Of a DNA stretch of 64,000 nt, positions 5,582 to 18,182 are shown piece after piece. Position numbers and translations under genes: made by a program. A model generated the notes under the pieces. The model was not told the origin of the DNA and searched no databases. It saw only the letters and a program-made list of their open reading frames with translations. The stretch lies in contig JACWAF010000029.1 in the NCBI GenBank assembly GCA_014874185.1, positions 1 to 64,000 on the forward strand, in the 5' to 3' direction. The DNA comes from Nitrospirota bacterium (GTDB taxonomy: Bacteria; Nitrospirota; Thermodesulfovibrionia; Thermodesulfovibrionales; JdFR-88). Within the stretch, counting starts at the first letter, position 1, and each line of letters begins with the position of its first letter.

Positions 5582-5794
5582 ATGGCGGTTGAAAAGGCGA
5601 TAGGGTCCAACAGTCTCGTCGAGGTAATCGACCGGATACTCGACAAGGGCGTCGTGATAGACGCCTGGGTGAGGGTCTCTCTCGTCGGAATCGAACTGCT
5701 CGCCATTGAAGCGCGAGCCGTTGTTGCTTCCGTCGAGACCTATCTGAAATATGCCGAAGCCATCGGCCTTACGGCGACGGCTGCAGCGGCATAG
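5582..5794 (+). CDS. gvpA: Gas vesicle structural protein GvpA
   Basis: [63 protein letters not shown] is the canonical GvpA sequence. A GGAGG-like RBS lies upstream of the ATG at 5582. The ORF track started this gene at the GTG at 5573. Confidence 0.95.
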
Positions 5795-5926
5795 CTTTGA
5801 ACACGGGATGAGCTGATAAACTCTTGCCAGGTTGCCCTCGAGGGGTCCCCGAAAAGCCGGCAGGCTTTTTGGGGCAGGCCTGAGCGTGACCAGCCAAGAT
5901 TTCATTAAACCGGAGCGGAAACAGAG

Positions 5927-6553
5927 ATGGATATCCAGTTGCACGAACTTAGACAACTCGCATTGTTGACGGTATCGTCTCATGAATCCAGGATACTTGC
6001 GGCAAGCAGGATCCTTGACATGATCCACGACGGCCTTGAGAACGTGAGAAGTTTAAGGGACGAGATGAACAACGAAATTAAGGAGGCGCTGGCCGCCACG
6101 GAATCCCTGAGGCGCAAGGACTTCAACTCCATGATAAGAGAGGTGTTTGCCGGACAGGATGAAAGAGAACGGCAGATAAGGATTCTTTTCAAGACCTACA
6201 TGGAAAAGCAAAAAGAGGCGGTCGCGTTGGTGAAAAGGATGTTTTCCGAAAGGGATTCGATAGTGCCTGACGAATTCAAAAAAACCATCCTTCACATCCA
6301 GCTGGCCCATAAGGAAATAGAGGAGGAAATATGCAAACTGCTGAAGGACTTCCAGGGCGAGCAAACGGACATTGTGAAGTCGATTCGCGGTTTGTTCAAT
6401 AAACCTGAGGGCAGGCTGCCGGATTTCAAAGAGATGCTGAAAAGCATACAGGCGAAGCAGAAAGACGGCATCCAAAGGGCAAAAAAAATAACTGAAAAAG
6501 CCAAAAAGGAAAGGTTCGAATCAGACATCCCGTTGGCAGAGGCGTGCTTGTAG
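5927..6553 (+). CDS. Hydrophilic coiled-coil protein, paralogous to the next ORF, in the position of gvpC. Candidate gas-vesicle accessory or scaffold protein.
   Basis: No family recognised. It shares aligned motifs with the 6620 ORF (KDFNSMIREVFAG.. against EDFKSLQKEIAAG..). It lies between gvpA and gvpN. Confidence 0.5.
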   Translation: MDIQLHELRQLALLTVSSHESRILAASRILDMIHDGLENVRSLRDEMNNEIKEALAATESLRRKDFNSMIREVFAGQDERERQIRILFKTYMEKQKEAVALVKRMFSERDSIVPDEFKKTILHIQLAHKEIEEEICKLLKDFQGEQTDIVKSIRGLFNKPEGRLPDFKEMLKSIQAKQKDGIQRAKKITEKAKKERFESDIPLAEACL

Positions 6554-6619
6554 AGAGATGCCGGAGCGGGCTTGCATCGCCCCGGCTTTCCTTAATTAAA
6601 AGGGAAGGAGGCAAATTCC

Positions 6620-7042
6620 ATGCCGATAACAGCCGACATGAAAAGGCTGGCTGAGGACATCGAGGGATCTTTTGATGCCAGGGTGAGCGATATAGCCGGC
6701 TTGAAAGAAAACATCCACAGGATGCTCCCTGAACTCGAAAGGAGCAGGATGGAGGATTTCAAATCCTTGCAAAAGGAGATAGCTGCAGGTGTCAAGGAGA
6801 TGCAATCGGAAGTGGGCTCGATGATCGATTCATTCCACAAATGGAATGTCGATACCGCAAAGTCCCTCAGCAACATGCTGAAGGAGGACAGGGTCGCCAG
6901 GGAAAAAGAAGTGGCCGGTTTTCTCGGCGAGATAGGGGCGGACCTGAGGGATGCATCCGACACCTGGAACCGGCTGACCCTGGACATGTCCCGCAAGAGA
7001 AGCGGGAAGACAGCGCCGGCAAAACAGAAGACAAGCAAGTAG
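6620..7042 (+). CDS. Hydrophilic alpha-helical protein, paralogous to the preceding ORF. Candidate gas-vesicle accessory protein.
   Basis: A strong RBS (GGAAGGAGG) precedes it. It shares motifs with the 5927 ORF and has the composition of a GvpC-like surface protein, but lacks canonical GvpC repeats. Confidence 0.5.
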   Translation: MPITADMKRLAEDIEGSFDARVSDIAGLKENIHRMLPELERSRMEDFKSLQKEIAAGVKEMQSEVGSMIDSFHKWNVDTAKSLSNMLKEDRVAREKEVAGFLGEIGADLRDASDTWNRLTLDMSRKRSGKTAPAKQKTSK

Positions 7043-7059: not shown

Positions 7060-7977
7060 ATGGACTTCGAAGAGCTAACCACGGTTCTGGAGCCTGCGCC
7101 GTTTAAGGATTTCGTGGAAACACAGTACATCAGGGGCGTCACGGACAGGGCGCTCACCTATATCGAGGCAGGTTTCCCGATCCACTTCAGGGGTGTTTCG
7201 GGGACGGGCAAGACGACGCTGGCGCTGCATGTTGCCGGCAAGATAGGGAGGCCCGTGGTGATGCTCCACGGTAACGAGGAATCAACGGGCTCAGACCTTG
7301 TGGGCGGAGCGTATGGCTACCGGTTTAAAAAGGTGGTCGACCGCTTTGTCGCCAAGGTGTTCAAGATGGAGGAGGATATGGTCAGGCGATGGGTCGACAG
7401 CCGCCTGACCATTGCCTGCAAACACGGGTTCACGCTCCTGTATGACGAATTCACGCGTTCGAGGCCCGAGGCCAATAACGTCCTGCTGTCGGTCCTCGGG
7501 GAAAAGGTCCTCGACTTCCCGGGCGGACAGGGATCTTCGGAACAGTACCTCAAGGTCAACCCCGATTTCACCGCCATATTCACGAGCAACCCCGAAGAAT
7601 ACGCGGGTGTGTACAGGTCCCAGGACGCGCTCAGGGACAGGATGATAACGATGGACCTCGATCACTTCGACCTTGAGACGGAGGTGGCCATAACCCAGGC
7701 AAAAGCGGGCCTGCCAAAGGACGAGTGCGAGAGGATAGCAAGCGTGGTCAGGGGCTTGCGGGAATCTGGCCAGTGCGAATTTGCCCCCACCGTGCGGGCA
7801 TCCGTAATGATAGCGAAGACGCTGAGAGTGCAGAACCGCTCACCCAAAAAATCGGATGCCCTTTTCGTGCAGATATGCAGGGACATACTGGCCTCGGAGA
7901 CCAGCAGGGTCGGCTCGAAGACAAACCAGGAGAGAGTGAAAAAAACGGTGGCCGGCCTGATCGATACCTATTGCTGA
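7060..7977 (+). CDS. gvpN: Gas vesicle protein GvpN (AAA+ ATPase of the CbbQ/NirQ/MoxR family)
   Basis: Walker A (GVSGTGKTTLA) and Walker B (LLYDEFTRSRPEANN) are present. The length and context are typical of GvpN. Confidence 0.9.
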   Translation: MDFEELTTVLEPAPFKDFVETQYIRGVTDRALTYIEAGFPIHFRGVSGTGKTTLALHVAGKIGRPVVMLHGNEESTGSDLVGGAYGYRFKKVVDRFVAKVFKMEEDMVRRWVDSRLTIACKHGFTLLYDEFTRSRPEANNVLLSVLGEKVLDFPGGQGSSEQYLKVNPDFTAIFTSNPEEYAGVYRSQDALRDRMITMDLDHFDLETEVAITQAKAGLPKDECERIASVVRGLRESGQCEFAPTVRASVMIAKTLRVQNRSPKKSDALFVQICRDILASETSRVGSKTNQERVKKTVAGLIDTYC

Positions 7978-7993: not shown

Positions 7994-8317
7994 ATGATAA
8001 AGAGCGCACGCGCATTGTCCGGAGGAATAAAGGGCCCGCGGGATATAAAGGGGATTTCAAGGGAGGCGAGGCGGCCGAAAACCCAGACCGCTGTCCCTTA
8101 CGGCACGGAATTCTTCATCCTGGGGAAGTGGAAGGAAAGACTTGAGCTGGAGAATGCCTTTCTGGAGAGGCGCATGGCGGCAAACTGCAAAAAGCTCGAC
8201 GCGATAAAGGAGAAGATCGCAAGGTTTGGGGGAGCGATGCGGGCAGTGGAGGGTCCAAAAGATGAGACAGCGGAGACGAGCGGGATGAAATACAAAAAAA
8301 TGACCCTGGGATACTGA
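7994..8317 (+). CDS. Small hypothetical protein within the gvp operon
   Basis: ORF only. It is tightly spaced between gvpN and the Hsp20 gene. No family recognised. Confidence 0.4.
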   Translation: MIKSARALSGGIKGPRDIKGISREARRPKTQTAVPYGTEFFILGKWKERLELENAFLERRMAANCKKLDAIKEKIARFGGAMRAVEGPKDETAETSGMKYKKMTLGY

Positions 8318-8340: not shown

Positions 8341-8868
8341 ATGGCAAGAAAAGAGAAAAGCAAAGAAGGCATAGATATAGACCTGGGGGTTGTCAAGCTG
8401 AGCGCGGGAGGACTGTTCAAGGGGCTTGAAAAGCTCGTGGACCTCGCGGCCAAGCTCCAGGAAGCGGGCGGACAGATAAGCAAAGAGCAGGAGATAGACC
8501 TCAGCCAACTCAAGAAGGGGATGAAGGCGGTATACGGGGTTTCAATCAGGACAGCCGTGGGCGGCGAGCCGGTGGTGGAGACCTTCGGCAATATCAAAAA
8601 GACGGAGAAAGGGCCGCTTGCGGAGGAGGAAAGGGAGCCCCTGACGGATGTTTTTGACGAAAAGGAGGAAATCCTGGTTCTGGCCGAAATCCCCGGCGTG
8701 AATGAAGAGGGGATAAAGGTCGGGATCGAAGGCGGTCAGATAGTCATATCGGCGGCGGGGACAAACCGGAAATACAGGAAAGAGATAGAAATCCCTTCAG
8801 GCGCAAAGCCGGAAACGATGACCACCAGCTATAGGAACGGAATCCTGGAGATCAGGATTAAAAAGTGA
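8341..8868 (+). CDS. Hsp20/alpha-crystallin domain protein (GvpH-like small heat-shock protein)
   Basis: The C-terminal half is ACD-like (EILVLAEIPGVNEEGIKVGIEGGQIVISAAG...ETMTTSYRNGILEIRI). The N-terminus is charged and lysine-rich. Confidence 0.7.
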   Translation: MARKEKSKEGIDIDLGVVKLSAGGLFKGLEKLVDLAAKLQEAGGQISKEQEIDLSQLKKGMKAVYGVSIRTAVGGEPVVETFGNIKKTEKGPLAEEEREPLTDVFDEKEEILVLAEIPGVNEEGIKVGIEGGQIVISAAGTNRKYRKEIEIPSGAKPETMTTSYRNGILEIRIKK

Positions 8869-9824
8869 ACGCCGTTTGCGGACTCCTCGACCCGCCGCTA
8901 AAGTTGATCCTGTTCGGCGGCAAGGGGGGTGTGGGGAAGACAACTCTTGCTTCAAGCGCCGGGGTTTATCTGGCCGAAAGGGGGAAAAGGACGCTTCTTG
9001 TCTCAACCGACCCGGCTCATTCCCTTTCGGACAGCCTGGGGATCGAGATAGGCAGTGAGACAAGAAATACGGAAATCGAGGGCTTGCATGCCCTGGAGAT
9101 AAATGCCGAAAAAGAGTTTGCGTCCTTTAAGGAACAATACGACAAGGAGCTGAGGAGCATCTTTGACACGGGCAGCTATCTGGATAAGGACGATGTGGAT
9201 TCGATACTTGCATTGCAGATGCCCGGCATTGACGAGGTAATGGGCCTCAAACAGATTATCGAGCTTGTAAGGGAAGGAAAATACGATAAATACGTACTGG
9301 ACACCGCCCCGACCGGGCATGCGCTAAGGCTTCTGCATCTTCCCGAACTCCTGGACCAGTGGATAAAGGTCGTCTCAAAGATGAGATGGAAATACAGATA
9401 CATGGTGGAAAGATTTTCGGGAGGATACAGGCCGGACGCGGTTGATGAGCTTCTTGTCACCATGAAAAAATCGGTCAAGCATATAGGAGACATTCTAAAG
9501 GACCAGAAGGCATGCGAGTTTATCGCGGTCACCATACCTGAAGATATGGCGATCAGGGAGACAGGGAGACTTATGGATTCTCTGAAGAGATATGGGATAA
9601 GGGTGCGGCAATTGATAATCAATAATGTCATCTGTCCTTCAAGCACATGCCCTTTCTGCATGGAAAGAAGAAAGGGACAGGAAAAATACATCAAGTCCGC
9701 AAGAGAGCAGTTCGGCAATCTGAATATCGTTGAGATACCGCTTCAGCAACACGAGGTAAAGGGGATCAGGGATCTTCAGAGGATGACGGGCCTTGCATTC
9801 GCGGATACGTGCCCTGCAACCTGA
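8865..9824 (+). CDS. ArsA/GET3-family anion-transporting ATPase homolog (single domain) embedded in the gvp cluster
   Basis: P-loop (LFGGKGGVGKTTLAS), STDPAHSL and the DTAPTGHALRLL signature are present. There is a C-terminal CPSSTCPFC cysteine motif. The start overlaps the Hsp20 stop. Confidence 0.85.
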   Translation: MNAVCGLLDPPLKLILFGGKGGVGKTTLASSAGVYLAERGKRTLLVSTDPAHSLSDSLGIEIGSETRNTEIEGLHALEINAEKEFASFKEQYDKELRSIFDTGSYLDKDDVDSILALQMPGIDEVMGLKQIIELVREGKYDKYVLDTAPTGHALRLLHLPELLDQWIKVVSKMRWKYRYMVERFSGGYRPDAVDELLVTMKKSVKHIGDILKDQKACEFIAVTIPEDMAIRETGRLMDSLKRYGIRVRQLIINNVICPSSTCPFCMERRKGQEKYIKSAREQFGNLNIVEIPLQQHEVKGIRDLQRMTGLAFADTCPAT

Positions 9825-9836
9825 AAAAGAGGCGGC

Positions 9837-11978
9837 TTGAACATGAACACTCAAGGTGAAGGCATATCGTTGAAGGTGAAGGAGGCGCTGCCGAAGGACG
9901 TGGGCAGGGCCATAGCCAGAATGGACCCTGAGGACATGAAGCGGCTCGGTGCTGAAGTAGGCGACATCATTGAGATCGCCGGGAAAAGGAGAGCGGCGGC
10001 AAAGGTGATGCCCTGCTATCCCGAGGAAAGGAATAAAGGGATTGTGCAGATTGACGGCATAATGCGGGAGAACTCCCAGACGGGGCTGGATGAGAAGGTG
10101 AACATAAGGAGGGCGGCCGCGGTTGCGGCGCGCAAGCTGACCCTTTCGCCCATGACCCGGATCCATCCTCTCCACAAGCTAAAGGACATGAAGTACCTGG
10201 GCTCTCTTCTGGAGGGGATGCCGCTCATCAATGGGGACAGGCTCAGGGTCAGCTTTTTCGGCGCCAGGGCGTACGATTTCAGGGCCACAGGCGTGCTTCC
10301 GCAGGGAATCGTTTTTGTAACCCCGTCGACCACGATAAACCTTGAGGCGGAAGTCCCCGAGAAGCCAAAGCACCTGAAGATATCATACGAGGACATAGGG
10401 GGGCTTCAATCCCAGATCAGAAAGATAAGAGAGATGATAGAGCTGCCTCTGAAGTATCCGCAAATATTTGAAAGGCTGGGGATTGAGCCGCCCAAGGGGG
10501 TCTTTCTTTACGGACCGCCTGGCACCGGAAAGACTCTTATTGCAAGGGCTGTTGCAAACGAGACCGAGGCCTATTTCACCCATATAAGCGGCCCCGAGAT
10601 AATGGGCAAATTCTACGGGGAAAGCGAGGCCCGCCTGAGGAGCATATTTGAAGAGGCCGAAAAAAAAGCCCCCTCCATAATCTTCATCGACGAGATCGAC
10701 GCCATAGCGCCAAAGAGGGAGGAGATGGGCGGGGAGAAACAGGTCGAAAGGAGGGTCGTGGCACAACTCCTTGCCCTTATGGACGGCCTGGAATCGAGGG
10801 GCGACGTGATAGTCATAGCCGCGACTAACCTTCCCAACCTGATAGACCCCGCGCTCAGGCGCCCGGGCAGGTTTGACAGGGAGATCCCAATCGATATCCC
10901 CGACCGGAAAGGGCGGCTTCAGATCCTCAACATCCATACCCGGGGGATGCCTCTGTCAGAGGACGTCAATACGGATAAGATTGCCGAGATCACGCATGGT
11001 TTTGTTGGCGCCGACCTGGAAGCCCTGGCGAGAGAGGCGGCCATGTCGGCCCTCAGAAAAATACTTCCGGAGATCGATTTCCAGATGGAGGAGATCCCCT
11101 ATGAGACCCTGATGCAGCTTCAGGTGACGATGGCCGATTTTCTGGAGGCGATGAAAGAGGTGGAGCCGTCCGCCATAAGAGAAGTCTTCGTCGAGGTGCC
11201 CGATGTAAGGTGGTCTGACGTGGGGGGCCTGGATGATATAAAGCAGGAGTTGCAGGAAGCGATAGAATGGCCCCTGAAATATCCCGAACTGTTCGGAAGG
11301 GCCGGCACGAGGCCTCCGAAGGGGATACTCCTTCACGGGGCCCCAGGGACCGGGAAGACCCTCATAGCCAAGGCCCTTGCCAACGAGAGCGGCGTAAATT
11401 TCATATCGGTCAAAGGCCCGAGCCTGATCTCAAAATTCGTCGGAGAGAGCGAAAAGGCCCTCAGGGACATATTCAAGAAGGCCAAGCAGGCCTCTCCTAC
11501 GATCCTGTTCTTTGACGAGATAGACAGCCTCGTCCCGAAACGGGACGGAGGAGGAGAAGCCCACGTGACGGAGAGAGTGGTGAGCCAGTTTCTGACCGAA
11601 ATGGACGGCATCGAGGAGCTGAGGGGCGTGGTGGTCCTGGCGGCCACGAACAGGCCGGACTTGATTGACCCGGCCCTGTTGAGAGGCGGCAGGTTTGATG
11701 TCCAGATGATTCTTCCTCTTCCCGATGAACGGACGCGGCTTAAGATCTTTGAAATCCATACAAGGGGCAAGCCCCTGGCTGGCGATGTCGATCTGCCCGA
11801 ACTGGCAAGACGGACTGAAGGCAGGGCGGGTTCAGATATTGAATTGATCTGCCGCAAGGCTTCCCTTCTTTCCATAAGGGAATACATCGGCCAGGAAATG
11901 AAGGCCGGGTTAGAGATTTCAAAGCGGCATTTTGAGGAAGCCCTGACGCTTCTCGAAAAGCGGGTTGCGGGGTATTAG
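9837..11978 (+). CDS. CDC48/VCP-like AAA+ ATPase with two AAA domains (N-domain, D1 and D2)
   Basis: The N-terminal double-psi-barrel-like region is present. There are two Walker A motifs (GPPGTGKT and GAPGTGKT), two DEID Walker B motifs and SRH motifs. Confidence 0.9.
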
Positions 11979-11981
11979 CGC

Positions 11982-13040
11982 ATGGAAGGTAAATATGCAT
12001 TCGGCGTCATTGAAGCACCTGAGGCAAAACTTCCCCTGCCGGAAGCGGTCTACACTGTCCCATACCGGGATATTTCGGCCGTAGTAATGGATTCAGCCAT
12101 GGTCGATTTTGCAGCCATGACCAAGGAGGCCGGGGCAAGATATCTTCTCAGGCATCAGCAGGTGCTGGAGAAGGCAATGGTTTCGCACCCAGTGATACCC
12201 CTGAAGCTCGGCACTTATGTTTCCAGTCATGCAGAGGTGATCGACGTCTTGTCATTTGGATACCGTGATTTCAAGGAGACCTTCCGCGAAATAGAAGGCA
12301 AAGTGGAAATCAATGTCGCCGCGACATGGTCTGACAAGGATTCCATTATCAGGCAGACGGCGGAGGAGAGTGAAGAGGTACGGGAGTATAAAAAGAAGCT
12401 CTTGTCGAAACCCGGGGGCGTAAACATGGAAGACCAGATGAACGCCGGACGCCTGGTCAGGAAAGCCATGGAAAAGAGGAACAGGAAAACGGCTTCCGGA
12501 ATAACAAGCGCCCTTTCGGAGATTGCGCTGGCACAGAGGACGCATGATCTCATGGACGACGGCATGATCCTGAATGCGGCCTTTCTGGTTGAACACAGGA
12601 AAATAAAAAGATTTGATTACGTCCTGAATAGATTGGACGAGGCCTATCATGGGCGAATAAATTTCAGGTGCATAGGCCCTTTACCTACATACAGCTTCTA
12701 CACCGCCGAGATAAAAAAGGTTTGTTCCGGCGAACTGGACAAGGCTAGGAAAATGCTCGGGCTCCGGGATTACCCGGTATGCAAGGACGAAATAGAAAAG
12801 GCATACCGGCAGCGCGCCCGCATGTGTCATCCCGATGTGATCGGGCATTGCATTGAAACGGGGGAGAAACGGGCCAGGAAAAAAGGACAGCCCTGTGCCA
12901 GTCCGGAAGTTGAAAGCACGGAAGAGTTCACCGAGATAAACAGGGCTTACAAGCTGCTTATGGACTGCAGCGCATCCGAAGCCTGTCGCAGAGAGGATGG
13001 AAGCGTTCTCATCGTCAGAGTAATGAGGATAAGGGGATAA
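11982..13040 (+). CDS. GvpL/GvpF-family gas vesicle protein fused to a C-terminal J-domain (DnaJ-like, HPD motif)
   Basis: The N-terminus is GvpF/L-like (YAFGVIEA...YRDISAVV...GPLPTYSFY). The C-terminus reads EIEKAYRQRARMCHPDV...EEFTEINRAYKLL, which are J-domain helices II and III with an HPD motif. Confidence 0.75.
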   Translation: MEGKYAFGVIEAPEAKLPLPEAVYTVPYRDISAVVMDSAMVDFAAMTKEAGARYLLRHQQVLEKAMVSHPVIPLKLGTYVSSHAEVIDVLSFGYRDFKETFREIEGKVEINVAATWSDKDSIIRQTAEESEEVREYKKKLLSKPGGVNMEDQMNAGRLVRKAMEKRNRKTASGITSALSEIALAQRTHDLMDDGMILNAAFLVEHRKIKRFDYVLNRLDEAYHGRINFRCIGPLPTYSFYTAEIKKVCSGELDKARKMLGLRDYPVCKDEIEKAYRQRARMCHPDVIGHCIETGEKRARKKGQPCASPEVESTEEFTEINRAYKLLMDCSASEACRREDGSVLIVRVMRIRG

Positions 13041-14348: not shown

Positions 14349-15172
14349 AGATATCCGGGGAATCAACGCCTGAGCATCTGGTATATCTTTTCTGCCTGGC
14401 TGATAAAATCCCGGAAACGGGCACTGAAACAGGAAAAGCCGGCAAGGATATAACTTACTTTTTAAATAACGGCCTCTATGCGGTTACGGGCATTGTGGCA
14501 AGTGATGATTTCTGCGGGGAGAACCTGAAAAGAAACCTGAACGATTTCAAGTGGGTTGAAGAGAAGGTCAGGTTTCATGAGCGGGTCGTGGAAAAAATGA
14601 TGGCATCCTCCACCGTGATACCGTTCAAGTTCGGCTCGGTCTTCAAAACGGAAGAAAGCCTGAAGAAGATGCTCGATGAATACATCGATGCATTCATGGA
14701 GATTTTTAAAAAGCTGGAAGGGAAACGGGAATGGGGAATAAAGATCTTCTGTGACCGCAAGGCATTTGCCCGATCAATTGAAAAGGGCGGTCATTGTGAC
14801 AGGCCGGAAAAAGAGATTGATATTCTCTCCACGGGGCGGGCTTTTTTAAACAGGAAAAGACAGGACCAGCTTATGTCAGAGCTCGTGGACGTGAAAATAA
14901 ACGAGGCCAGACTCGAAATTTATGAGGTGCTGATGGGGCACAGCACTGAAGTCCGCATCAGTGGTCTTTTGCCTGCGGAAGTAACCAGCCGGAAAGAGGA
15001 CATGGTGTTCAATGCCGCTTTCCTGGTTGATAACGGCATGGCGGGCGCTTTCATCGACGAAGTGGAACTTTTTAAGGATAAATACCGCGGGTTTGAAATG
15101 GAATGCACGGGTCCATGGCCACCTTATAATTTCTGCGCCATTAAAGAGCATGAATCAGCAGATAGCAAATAG
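14345..15172 (+). CDS. GvpF/GvpL-family gas vesicle protein (third copy)
   Basis: LVYLFCLAD...LYAVTG...ends GPWPPYNFCAI, parallel to the other GvpF/L copies. Confidence 0.8.
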   Translation: MKISGESTPEHLVYLFCLADKIPETGTETGKAGKDITYFLNNGLYAVTGIVASDDFCGENLKRNLNDFKWVEEKVRFHERVVEKMMASSTVIPFKFGSVFKTEESLKKMLDEYIDAFMEIFKKLEGKREWGIKIFCDRKAFARSIEKGGHCDRPEKEIDILSTGRAFLNRKRQDQLMSELVDVKINEARLEIYEVLMGHSTEVRISGLLPAEVTSRKEDMVFNAAFLVDNGMAGAFIDEVELFKDKYRGFEMECTGPWPPYNFCAIKEHESADSK

Positions 15173-15737
15173 GAATGTCTGTCTGTCTGAAGCGATAGAC
15201 GCCGTTCTGAACAAGGGCGTTGTCGTCAGCGGAGACATAACTCTATCCGTTGCTGATGTCGATCTGGTCTTCGTGGGCCTGAGGGCGCTTCTGGCTTCGG
15301 TCGACGTGGCAAACAGGATTAGAGGGGGGCCGGGCCCGCTTGGCGCGCCGCCGTCATCGGGAAAAACCGTTCCGGGCGGAAGGCCTGATCCCGTAGAGGC
15401 CTGTTCTTCTTCATGCTCCGAAGAAAGCCGGCTCGCGGTGCTTGAAGGGGGCGTGGAAAAAGCCGCAGTCCCTCTTCCACGCATTGAGATGGAAGAATCG
15501 AAGCCCGAGCGGGGGCTTGCGAAACTGGTCCTCACCGTCGTGGACCTTGTAAGAAAGCTGATGGAAAAGCAGGCCATCCGGAGGATGGACGGCGGGAGCC
15601 TGACGGAAGAGGAGATAGAACGGCTTGGAAACACCTTCGCGAAACTGGAAGAGAGGATGGAAGACCTGAAAAGGGTCTTCGGCCTCGAAGGGGAGGAACT
15701 CGAATTGGACCTTGGTCCTTTGGGAAAACTCACATGA
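15150..15737 (+). CDS. GvpJ (GvpA-family) domain fused to a GvpK-like domain
   Basis: The N-terminus reads LSEAIDAVLNKGVVVSGDITLSVADVDLVFVGLRALLASVD (GvpJ/A fold). A Pro/Gly/Ser linker follows. The C-terminus reads GLAKLVLTVVDLVRKLMEKQAIRRMDGGSLTEEEIERLG (GvpK signature). The proposed ATG at 15150 overlaps the previous gene by 23 nt. Confidence 0.7.
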   Translation: MNQQIANRNVCLSEAIDAVLNKGVVVSGDITLSVADVDLVFVGLRALLASVDVANRIRGGPGPLGAPPSSGKTVPGGRPDPVEACSSSCSEESRLAVLEGGVEKAAVPLPRIEMEESKPERGLAKLVLTVVDLVRKLMEKQAIRRMDGGSLTEEEIERLGNTFAKLEERMEDLKRVFGLEGEELELDLGPLGKLT

Positions 15738-16082: not shown

Positions 16083-16772
16083 ATGCGCACCCTCCTGTAT
16101 GTGCCTATTATCCATATGAGCGCGGACCTTGGTTCGCTTGCCAAGAATTTTACAAACCGGGGCATAAAGGATCTGGGGGAGGATGTCTGGGAAGAACACA
16201 GGAAAACCGTTTCGATGTTCTGGGAGTCGATAACGGCTTTTTTTGAGGCTATGCCCGTAGCGGGATTCAAGATATACCAGGACGGAATGATCGCAAATGG
16301 CGAGATAGCTGAAAAGATAATAGAGGCAGGCGTAAGAAGCGGCAGCAAGAATTACGAGATCATAAGGAGACTCATGGGGAAAGGGGCTATTCTTATAAAA
16401 ACGGAAGATCTGGCCCTGGTAAAAGAAGAAAGAGACTGGCTGCTTCGGATAACCCAGGCCAGAACGCTCCCTGAAAAATTGAAGGCTTATCTTGGATTCA
16501 GGGGGGCAAAAAACCATCTTCTGAAAAGAAGGGACAGCTATATAGCCCAAACGATAAACAGGACCCTCGGGCAGGAGGAGACAGGGATTTTATTCATAGG
16601 GGCTTACCATGAAATAATTCCCCGGCTTGATCCGGACATCGCGGTCAAAGAAATAAAAGAAGTTCGCAAAGTGAGGGAATATCAAAAAAGGCTGCCATAC
16701 CAGGGCAGAAAAAAAGATGAGCTATTTGAAGAATTGTCCCATTATCTAATCAGACCTGTTAACAAGAAGTAA
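16083..16772 (+). CDS. Hypothetical protein, last gene of the gvp operon (6 nt after the preceding stop)
   Basis: ORF with operon-like spacing. No recognisable family. Confidence 0.45.
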   Translation: MRTLLYVPIIHMSADLGSLAKNFTNRGIKDLGEDVWEEHRKTVSMFWESITAFFEAMPVAGFKIYQDGMIANGEIAEKIIEAGVRSGSKNYEIIRRLMGKGAILIKTEDLALVKEERDWLLRITQARTLPEKLKAYLGFRGAKNHLLKRRDSYIAQTINRTLGQEETGILFIGAYHEIIPRLDPDIAVKEIKEVRKVREYQKRLPYQGRKKDELFEELSHYLIRPVNKK

Positions 16773-17514: not shown

Positions 17515-17766
17515 ATGAGGACTTGGCAATTGCAGGAAGCAAAAGCGCGTTTGAGTGAGGTGATAAAGCAAGCCTCGAAGGAGGGACCCCAGACCATTAC
17601 GATGCGCGGAGAACCCACCGCTGTTGTGCTTTCAAAGGGCGAATATGAACGGCTCAAGCATCCAAAAGGAAGTTTTGTGGATTTTATGCGGAAATCGCCT
17701 CTTTACGGAGTGGATATTGACCTGAAGCGGGAGCAGACATTGACCCGGGAATCTGATATTTCATGA
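17515..17766 (+). CDS. Type II antitoxin (Phd/YefM or VapB-like)
   Basis: MRTWQLQEAKARLSEVIKQASKEGPQTITMRGEPTAVVL. The gene overlaps a PIN toxin gene. Confidence 0.75.
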   Translation: MRTWQLQEAKARLSEVIKQASKEGPQTITMRGEPTAVVLSKGEYERLKHPKGSFVDFMRKSPLYGVDIDLKREQTLTRESDIS

Positions 17767-18182
17767 GCTACCTGCTTGATACCAATGTTGTTTCAGAAAC
17801 AATACGGCGTCATCAAAATAAGGCTGTGGTCGAGTGGCTTGAACAGGTTCCGGCCGAAGCGCTCTTCATAAGCGTTTTGACGCTGGGCGAAATCCGGAAG
17901 GGCGTTGAGGCGCTTACAGATAAAAAAAGAAGGGAAAAGTTGCGCCTTTGGCTGGAGCGCGAGCTCCCGGTCTGGTTCGAGGACCGGGTGCTCCCGGTTG
18001 ACCTTGCCGTGGCCGAACGATGGGGCAGACTGCTTGCCCAAGCTGGCCGTCCGGTCCCTACCATCGACAGTCTTCTTGCCGCCACAGCATTGCATTATGA
18101 ATTGCGGCTTGTGACCCGGAATGCAAGAGATTTCGATTATCCAGGGCTTGAAGTGGTTAATCCCTGGCAGAACGCGACTTGA
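17763..18182 (+). CDS. vapC: PIN-domain toxin VapC
   Basis: MSYLLDTNVVSE...TLGEIRKG...LVTRNARDF. The fold is PIN/VapC-like. The start overlaps the antitoxin stop. Confidence 0.8.
   Translation: MSYLLDTNVVSETIRRHQNKAVVEWLEQVPAEALFISVLTLGEIRKGVEALTDKKRREKLRLWLERELPVWFEDRVLPVDLAVAERWGRLLAQAGRPVPTIDSLLAATALHYELRLVTRNARDFDYPGLEVVNPWQNAT

Follow-up and report, generated by a model that had tools for sequence, protein, structure and literature searches.

A candidate two-paralogue GvpC-type coat encoded between gvpA and gvpN in a Nitrospirota gas vesicle cluster

Do the two genes that occupy the gvpC position in a gas vesicle cluster of a Nitrospirota bacterium encode a coat for the vesicle shell? 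The cluster is complete and lies on the + strand at about 5.5–16.8 kb of the window analysed here, i.e., a stretch of 64,000 nucleotides (positions 1 to 64,000 of contig JACWAF010000029.1, assembly GCA_014874185.1). Its gene gvpA (5582..5794, +) codes for the major gas vesicle shell protein (70 amino acids (aa); PF00741, E = 6e-17; NF006874, E = 7e-38), and gvpN (7060..7977, +), which closes the module, codes for an AAA+ ATPase (TIGR02640, E = 4.6e-97). Between them are two open reading frames (ORFs) with ATG starts, ORF1 (5927..6553, +; 208 aa) and ORF2 (6620..7042, +; 140 aa). The initial annotation had described these as a paralogous pair of helical proteins in the position of gvpC. Its coordinates for the two ORFs are exact, the above models confirm the flanking genes, and all four motifs which it quoted are present: KDFNSMIREVFAG at residues 64–76 and LVKRMFSERD at residues 101–110 of ORF1, and EDFKSLQKEIAAG at residues 45–57 and LSNMLKEDR at residues 83–91 of ORF2.

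GvpC is a handle for tuning the stiffness, shape and acoustic behaviour of gas vesicles; the majority of engineered acoustic biosensors are GvpC variants. What is known about GvpC derives from cyanobacteria, haloarchaea and Serratia. The best explanation of the data presented below, to which we assign a probability of roughly 0.6, is that ORF1 and ORF2 make up a diverged GvpC-type coat of two paralogues, which would bind and stiffen the outer GvpA shell. Helical repeat proteins coating gas vesicles are already known as a kind; what is new is how widely this divergent family is distributed, that it is arranged as a fixed pair of paralogues, and that it is probably linked to canonical GvpC.

Two families of repeat proteins downstream of gvpA

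ORF1 and ORF2 are genuine genes under purifying selection. In comparison with two diverged relatives, the ratio of nonsynonymous to synonymous substitution rates (dN/dS) was 0.18–0.19 for ORF1 and 0.31–0.32 for ORF2, with values of 0.10 for gvpN and 0.05 for gvpA. Both proteins are hydrophilic and charged (grand average of hydropathy, −0.59 and −0.70; content of K+R+D+E, 37% and 36%, respectively), and neither has a meaningful match among Pfam or NCBIfam models. Clear homology to an unrelated family such as phasins or regulators, named in the initial annotation as an outcome that would speak against a GvpC-like function, was not seen: matches to phasin, apolipoprotein and regulator models all are far below the curated thresholds, the best ones being to Apolipoprotein (about 24 bits, cut-off 90) and PhaP_Bmeg (about 13 bits, cut-off 28.3).

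Word-indexed protein searches returned four near-identical relatives of ORF1 and three of ORF2, and a search with a 48-sequence alignment added at least four proteins. Since the word-indexed searches suggested near-orphans, 80 loci around gvpA genes were collected from one-genome-per-species contigs, and their 7281 ORFs were searched locally with profiles of ORF1 and ORF2. The loci were picked by similarity to the GvpA protein of the window, so the frequencies given here hold for this type of GvpA and not for all gas vesicle clusters. The ORF1 profile (A1) identified a protein of 180–280 aa encoded directly 3' of gvpA in about 55 loci (E down to 3e-39), and the ORF2 profile (A2) identified the next ORF, coding for 120–460 aa (E down to ~1e-17), with several matched stretches per match, indicating repeats. 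According to the family hidden Markov models (HMMs), fam1, the family of ORF1, is present in 51 of the 80 loci, fam2, the family of ORF2, in 60, and both together in 47. The strict order gvpA-fam1-fam2-gvpN is found in 25 loci, or in 39 when variants with extra gvpA or fam2 copies (AA12N, A122N, AA1122N, A12NA) are included. All 136 profile matches among the 7281 ORFs are located on the gvpA strand and downstream of gvpA, with none on the opposite strand. The loci derive from Bacteroidota, Planctomycetota, Chlorobiota/Ignavibacteriota, Lentisphaerota, Chlamydiota, Cloacimonadota, Nitrospinota, Nitrospirota, NC10, Elusimicrobiota, Spirochaetota, Pseudomonadota and several candidate phyla, i.e., from more than a dozen phyla overall. 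When 1.84 billion representatives were searched exhaustively with HMMER, with only the three ORF2 sequences of the Nitrospirota type as seed, 246 of them were retrieved at E ≤ 1e-3. Literature searches of incomplete coverage retrieved no description of fam1 or fam2; an earlier description is possible.

The proposal that ORF1 and ORF2 are related to each other is marginal when judged by pairwise alignment alone. BLASTP gave an E value of 6e-4 and 23% identity in a shifted register, hhalign on shallow alignments gave 14%, and in a Smith-Waterman shuffle test the real score was reached by 1 of 1000 shuffles. With deep alignments (51 fam1 and 41 fam2 members), however, hhalign aligned residues 1–162 of ORF1 with residues 1–125 of ORF2 at a probability of 98.7% (E = 1.8e-16). 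This alignment starts at residue 1 of both proteins and pairs KDFNSMIREVFAG with EDFKSLQKEIAAG, which is the register of the initial annotation. A profile grown from ORF2 alone matches ORF1 at 71 bits. The deep family alignments clearly point to ORF1 and ORF2 being paralogues.

The shifted register of the BLASTP alignment reflects internal repeats. When the fam1 profile was aligned with itself, residues 17–152 of ORF1 matched residues 64–204 with a probability of 98.4%, and a double shift reached 67%. Motif offsets of 58, 51 and 50 residues in ORF1 match the fam1 autocorrelation peaks at 51, 58 and 109, and segment shuffle tests for repeats gave z values of 5–7. Repeat 1 of ORF1 (residues 1–62; 5927..6112, +) carries a head motif in common with ORF2, in which HELRQLALLTVSSHESRI aligns with ADMKRLAEDIEGSFDARV, and ends in an L-A-x3-S-L-R-R-K loop; L55, A56, S60, L61 and R62 are conserved columns. 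Repeat 2 (residues 63–113; 6113..6265, +) begins with KDFNSMIREV, contains D65, F66 and M69, which are among the most conserved columns, and scores z = 5.3–6.2 against repeat 3 and against residues 43–92 of ORF2. Repeat 3 (residues 114–164; 6266..6418, +), which was delimited by the shuffle tests and the self profile, begins with DEFKKTILHI; its offset from repeat 2, 51 residues, is the strongest autocorrelation lag of fam1. Repeat 4 (residues 165–208; 6419..6553, +) begins with PDFKEMLKSI and runs through a tail of low conservation to the stop codon.

Fam1 is defined by the head motif, the sequence L-A-x3-S-L-R-K-K-D-F-D-x-M-M, four repeats of about 50–58 residues and a location as first gene 3' of gvpA, all of which are found for ORF1; A56, R62 and D65 are nearly invariant in this family. 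Likewise, ORF2 has the features that define fam2, namely the head M-x-I-A-x-D-M-K-x-L-x-E-D-I-x-x-S-Y-x-x-R, a variable count of units of about 34–53 residues, and a C-terminal W...R motif; M1, R21 and W116 are conserved at 90% or more among 150 fam2 members. Lags of 33, 40 and 47 residues are observed in fam2, in which the unit V-x3-L-x2-F-x6-M-x3-L-x3-L recurs at about 34 or 53 residues. In the columns of ORF2 itself, the internal repeats are too degenerate to be significant (self hhalign, E = 0.05). The 3.6-residue helical period prevails in the BLOSUM autocorrelation, and the longer lags are mixed (33, 40, 47, 51, 58); therefore, no single repeat length is claimed, and commensurability with the GvpA lattice is treated as hypothetical.

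In Planctomycetota, several loci (L013 6413-7489, L045 4820-5407, L050 1899-2603, L051 5653-6357 and L016 7469-8176) have one more paralogue, a third, located between fam1 and fam2, and with this order, A-1-2-2-N, the family is further expanded in this phylum. The proteins in the same slot of Octadecabacter (208 aa) and Spartinivicinus (97 aa) were considered as family members and rejected, as they are unrelated to fam1 and fam2; the gvpA-gvpN slot is therefore not universally filled by this family. The metagenome-derived fam1 members P0008–P0010 carry the precomputed label PF01724 (DUF29), which is absent from other members and probably reflects a weak or spurious match.

Similarity to canonical GvpC and predicted structure

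A fam2 HMM built without cyanobacterial sequences matched the Pfam-verified GvpC protein of Calothrix with 57.3 bits, the alignment extending across the GvpC repeats, whereas 200 shuffled sequences reached no more than 6.0 bits and the reversed one 2.6 bits. When the twelve members closest to GvpC were omitted, the score was still 30.6 bits. Using hhalign, fam2 matched Calothrix GvpC with a probability of 82% (E = 1e-5), as compared to 0.2% for the reversed sequence, and a profile (A5) made from the matches of the ORF2 seed in the exhaustive search scored 40.6 bits. Across the tests of the fam2 and A5 profiles, controls did not exceed 8.7 bits. In the reverse direction, phmmer with Calothrix GvpC as query retrieved fam2 members at E values down to 5e-8. 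These comparisons suggest that fam2 and its member ORF2 are probably remotely homologous to canonical GvpC.

Structures were predicted by AlphaFold2 from shallow alignments of 8 (ORF1) and 3 (ORF2) sequences. For ORF2, the model consists of a single α-helix comprising residues 2–128 (6623..7003, +; predicted local distance difference test (pLDDT), 88), whose 127 residues would extend over about 190 Å if straight. The helix includes the head motif (residues 1–39), the RMEDFKSLQKEI segment (residues 43–54) and the C-terminal W116...R127 motif; it is followed by a basic non-helical tail (GKTAPAKQKTSK; 7004..7039, +; pLDDT 51–77), the length and sequence of which vary among relatives. ORF1 is predicted to form helices from residues 2–57, 63–107, 114–158 and 165–194, which are connected by short loops and packed into a bundle (pLDDT 77; predicted template modelling score, 0.71).

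The full-length hydrophobicity spectra of both ORFs peak at 99°, corresponding to 3.64 residues. Across fam1 and fam2 the peak is at 99–99.5° (interquartile range 99–99.5°), i.e., 3.62–3.64 residues, and Calothrix GvpC peaks at 98.5°. The description of the two proteins as charged and coiled-coil thus requires amendment: they are charged and predicted to be all-helical, but their period of 3.63 residues is not that of a canonical left-handed coiled coil, since a heptad repeat (3.5 residues) would give 102.9°. The conservation moment falls on the same face as hydrophobicity, with z values of 5.4–7.9 at 99–99.5° (ORF2 family: 99°, z = 7.9). Leu, Ile, Met and Phe make up most of the conserved face, and nearly invariant residues of other types are R21, W116 and R127 in ORF2 and R62 and D65 in ORF1. 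On these predictions, the proteins would be all-α rods with one-sided conservation, as is cyanobacterial GvpC. The single conserved L/F/R face of GvpC has been tied to binding by mutagenesis (PMC9994262).

Like cyanobacterial gvpC (Anabaena flos-aquae, Calothrix), the two genes are located immediately 3' of gvpA in the operon and before gvpN, and their products share with cyanobacterial GvpC the hydrophilic, all-α character, tandem repeats in which conserved hydrophobic and Arg residues share one face of the helix, and the hydrophobic period (~3.64–3.66 residues). In contrast to cyanobacterial GvpC, the repeats of ORF1 and ORF2 are degenerate and of mixed length (~34 and 51–58 residues). Moreover, the conserved N-terminal head and the C-terminal W...R motif of fam2 are not found in canonical cyanobacterial GvpC, which is encoded by one gene, whereas fam1 and fam2 constitute a two-paralogue set. 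Loci of Nostoc, Synechococcales and Halomicronema code for a protein of 226–335 aa 3' of gvpA which has no canonical GvpC repeat match (L073 8659-9357, L081 10437-11117, L083 1542-2240, L084 10430-11128, L071 10389-11312 and L072 1075-2082); these proteins match the fam2 and A5 profiles at E values from 1e-4 to 5e-18. The textbook 33-residue GvpC is therefore not used by all cyanobacteria.

Haloarchaeal GvpC (PF05465) occupies the same slot, the order gvpA-gvpC-gvpN of Halobacterium pNRC100 matching gvpA-ORF1-ORF2-gvpN, and is helical, with less regular repeats of 32–39 residues (PMC9501494). Unlike ORF1 and ORF2, it is extremely acidic and has a hydrophobic period nearer 3.5, and comparison with both families revealed no detectable relationship (hhalign 0.1–0.2%, HMM ≤ 4 bits). 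It carries, after an acidic linker, a small nucleic-acid-binding-like C-terminal domain, which in the Halobacterium protein matches ROS/MucR above threshold (28 bits). This domain has a parallel in long fam2 members (350–460 aa) from Bacteroidota, Chlorobi, Victivallales and Chloroflexi, which terminate in a winged-helix (MarR/RPA_C-like) domain following a linker rich in Pro, Glu and Lys (L044 11287-12432, L034 10987-12162, L035 5594-6967, L014 3911-5011 and L066 3913-5268); MarR_2 is matched by 8 of 150 fam2 members (best E = 7e-7).

In Serratia sp. ATCC 39006, a single gvpC is located between gvpA1 and gvpN, and its deletion lowers the collapse pressure from 0.43 to 0.14 MPa (PMC4982088). 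The slot thus holds one gene in that strain, as compared to the fam1–fam2 pair described here. A Methylocella protein encoded in the gvpA-gvpN slot scores 27–42 bits with ORF2-derived profiles and joins fam2; membership in fam2 thus becomes plausible for some proteobacterial “GvpC” proteins, that of Serratia among them. Exchangeable apolipoproteins, apolipophorin III and phasins also possess long amphipathic helices with a period near 3.6–3.67 residues, in bundles able to open onto a surface, and sub-threshold Pfam similarity to Apolipoprotein and ApoLp-III was recorded for 23 and 13 of 150 members, respectively. However, their genomic context is different, and the proposed target of ORF1 and ORF2 would be a protein lattice rather than a lipid or polyester surface.

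A proposed coat on the GvpA shell and competing explanations

In the mechanism that we propose, both proteins would be made from the gvpA operon and would lie as hydrophilic, all-α amphipathic rods on the outer face of the GvpA shell. Each would present a continuous conserved face of Leu, Ile, Met and Phe together with a few Arg and Trp residues; since this face recurs every 3.63 residues, it would not drift out of register along an almost straight helix. The face could dock along the GvpA rib onto the exposed α2 helices, whose residues V51, E52 and E59 have been assigned to GvpC binding (PMC9994262). By sequence inspection, all three are kept in the GvpA protein of the window (numbering from ATG 5582), which is about 80% identical to cyanobacterial GvpA. 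ORF2 would be the direct counterpart of canonical GvpC, with one helix of about 190 Å, a conserved head, the W/R motif and a basic tail. ORF1 would contribute four helices of about 45 residues with short Gly/Pro-containing linkers, placed end to end along the rib or forming a bundle that bridges neighbours. Such a coat would raise the pressure borne by the shell and might set the width of the vesicle. We infer vesicle-surface binding, a rib-parallel geometry, strengthening of the shell and a division of labour between the paralogues.

On a GvpA lattice of 12.7 Å per subunit (PMC9994262), a straight ORF2 helix of about 190 Å would extend over approximately 15 subunits, the 51-residue repeat of ORF1 (~76 Å) over about six, and the 34-residue unit of fam2 (~51 Å) over about four, as does the GvpC repeat of 33 residues in the same geometry. 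These matches in subunit count are suggestive, with repeat lengths that vary. A bolder scheme, which we regard as doubtful, would take gvpA-fam1-fam2-gvpN for a common and possibly ancestral bacterial coat and the cyanobacterial 33-residue GvpC for a regularised offshoot of fam2. Fam1 and fam2 would then make up an outer layer of two components, with the GvpA lattice dictating their repeat lengths (~34 residues for four and ~51 for six subunits, i.e., ~8.5 residues per 12.7 Å subunit), with fam1 as a distinct cross-bracing or spacing element without counterpart in the model systems studied.

Several observations weigh against the interpretation of ORF1 and ORF2 as a GvpC-type coat. The curated cyanobacterial (PF01304, TIGR02641) and haloarchaeal (PF05465) GvpC models do not match ORF1 or ORF2 at E ≤ 1, while the positive controls scored 1e-50 and 1e-54 (Calothrix GvpC) and 3e-74 (Halobacterium GvpC). 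In 24 other family members scanned singly, the PF01304 and TIGR02641 repeat models likewise had no match at E ≤ 1, and PF01304 does not appear among the 25 families listed as matched most often by 150 relatives of ORF2. As far as curated models are concerned, the initial annotation was right in stating that the two proteins lack 33-aa GvpC repeats, but both do hold repeats, albeit degenerate ones. The columns of ORF2 itself align with GvpC at a probability of 11% (hhalign, E = 0.003), and the link between fam2 and GvpC therefore rests on intermediates. Fam1 gave no direct signal with canonical GvpC (0.6 bits; hhalign, 0.1%) and, as judged from these profile comparisons, is tied to GvpC solely through fam2. 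The compact bundle predicted for ORF1 could instead point to a soluble, globular function, any helical bundle would be expected to have a conserved hydrophobic face, and the mixed repeat lengths leave a strict match to the GvpA lattice hypothetical. Finally, the retrievable database names of family members, including RefSeq/UniProt entries for Chlorobium phaeovibrioides (locus L044) and for Pelodictyon luteolum, each of which has a fam1 member (Plut_0690 in the latter), all are “hypothetical protein” or “uncharacterized protein”. On the other side, the conserved module, the probable remote homology of fam2 and GvpC, the predicted single helix and the one-sided face argue for the surface or scaffold function analogous to GvpC which had originally been suggested.

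A different possibility, which we consider rather improbable, is that the proteins act as assembly chaperones or scaffolds that shield a hydrophobic or aggregation-prone GvpA surface or, together with GvpN, template rib growth, and are not stoichiometric components of mature vesicles. The genes directly precede gvpN in a cluster rich in genes of chaperone type, which code for Hsp20, an ArsA/Get3 ATPase, a CDC48-type AAA protein and a GvpF/L protein that in a relative matches DnaJ weakly; moreover, ORF1 is predicted to form a compact bundle, the weak similarity to apolipoprotein and apolipophorin models would suit exchangeable amphipathic binders, and haloarchaeal GvpC interacts with many assembly proteins (PMC9501494). 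However, fam2 appears to be remotely homologous to GvpC, which has been shown to stay on the vesicles (PMC10903477), and a long unbroken helix combined with a variable number of repeats (120–460 aa in fam2) is typical of a coat of tunable length and not of a chaperone. We regard it as unlikely that ORF1 and ORF2 serve the organisation of vesicles among each other or in the cell, such as clustering, spacing or tethering, or have a regulatory side function: ORF2 of the window is devoid of the winged-helix (MarR-like) C-terminus which many long fam2 members possess and which, along with the lysine-rich tail of ORF2 and the ROS/MucR-like domain of Halobacterium GvpC, would be in line with such roles. 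In both families, the conserved part is the helical repeat region, and Pfam and NCBIfam scans of ORF1 and ORF2 revealed no signature of DNA binding or phase separation.

The marginal pairwise similarity of ORF1 and ORF2, the many sub-threshold matches to unrelated helical families, and fold searches that returned generic helical bundles only could also be accounted for by generic, fast-evolving amphipathic helical filler of the phasin or apolipoprotein type, the resemblance arising from composition and helical periodicity. This explanation is very improbable, and the controls largely exclude it. The signal is lost in reversed and shuffled sequences, profile matches are confined to the slot downstream of gvpA, and both genes are under purifying selection and code for nearly invariant residues (R21 and W116 in fam2; A56, R62 and D65 in fam1).

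If the coat interpretation is correct, most bacterial clusters with a cyanobacterial-type GvpA, including those of Bacteroidota, Planctomycetota, Chlorobiota, Nitrospirota and candidate phyla, would carry an unannotated two-protein coat for which there is no Pfam or NCBIfam model. The family definition could then serve to annotate hundreds of “hypothetical proteins”, canonical GvpC would be linked in evolution to a much larger superfamily, and new natural stiffeners, including a second type of paralogue, would become available for heterologous vesicle systems.

Other genes of the cluster and the gvpA-ORF1 spacer

The order gvpA-ORF1-ORF2-gvpN and the entire downstream cluster are kept on contigs of four related lineages, one of which is labelled Nitrospiraceae. 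Mechanical ORF calling starts gvpA at GTG 5573, but GGGAGG is located 8 nt ahead of ATG 5582, and the 70-aa product is also called in relatives. The sequence GGAAGGAGG is located 8 nt upstream of the ORF2 start.

Immediately 3' of gvpN, an ORF of 107 aa (7994-8317, +) has no match in Pfam or NCBIfam. It is kept in relatives of the Nitrospirota type and, weakly, in the same slot of about ten other loci; small proteins encoded after gvpN in Methylocella and Spartinivicinus show the same layout, with a central coiled segment and a C-terminus of the form ...[LM]-x-Y. This ORF could be a candidate counterpart of GvpV of Serratia or Anabaena. The adjacent genes (8341-11978, +) encode an Hsp20 protein of archaeal type with weak similarity to GvpH, an ArsA/Get3/TRC40-type ATPase and a CDC48-type double AAA+ protein, all three of which are retained within the gvp cluster of relatives. 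They are followed by the first GvpF/L paralogue (11982-13040, +), which is extended at its C-terminus. This extension matches DnaJ (PF00226) weakly in the relative L004 (16053-17096), which suggests that a J-domain-like part is fused to an assembly protein of the gas vesicle.

The remaining cluster genes code for the other two of the three GvpF/L paralogues, GvpG, a weakly GvpO-like protein, a GvpJ-GvpK fusion and a second GvpA/J-type protein. The apparent fusion of a GvpA/J-type domain and a GvpK domain is encoded by a single ORF (~15150-15737, +), which was called mechanically from 15012, overlapping the preceding gvpF/L gene; in relatives, PF00741 and PF05121 are both found on one product of 190–197 aa. 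At the end of the cluster is an ORF of 229 aa (16083-16772, +) without family match, the position of which is kept in L004 and partially in L001.

The spacer between gvpA and ORF1 is highly conserved except for a 38-nt insertion at its apex (5845-5882, +), which is not present in two relatives and forms a perfect 12-bp hairpin, CCCCGAAAAGCC-GGCA-GGCUUUUUGGGG. The conserved spacer itself can also pair (GGTYGCCCTC...GAGCGTGACC). The hairpin lacks a U-tract and was not called by a terminator scan; it is possibly a transcript-end or stability element that sets the ratio of gvpA to ORF1 and ORF2. Just beyond the gvp cluster (17515-18182, +), a small antitoxin-like ORF is followed by an ORF of 139 aa which by eye resembles a PIN-domain VapC toxin.

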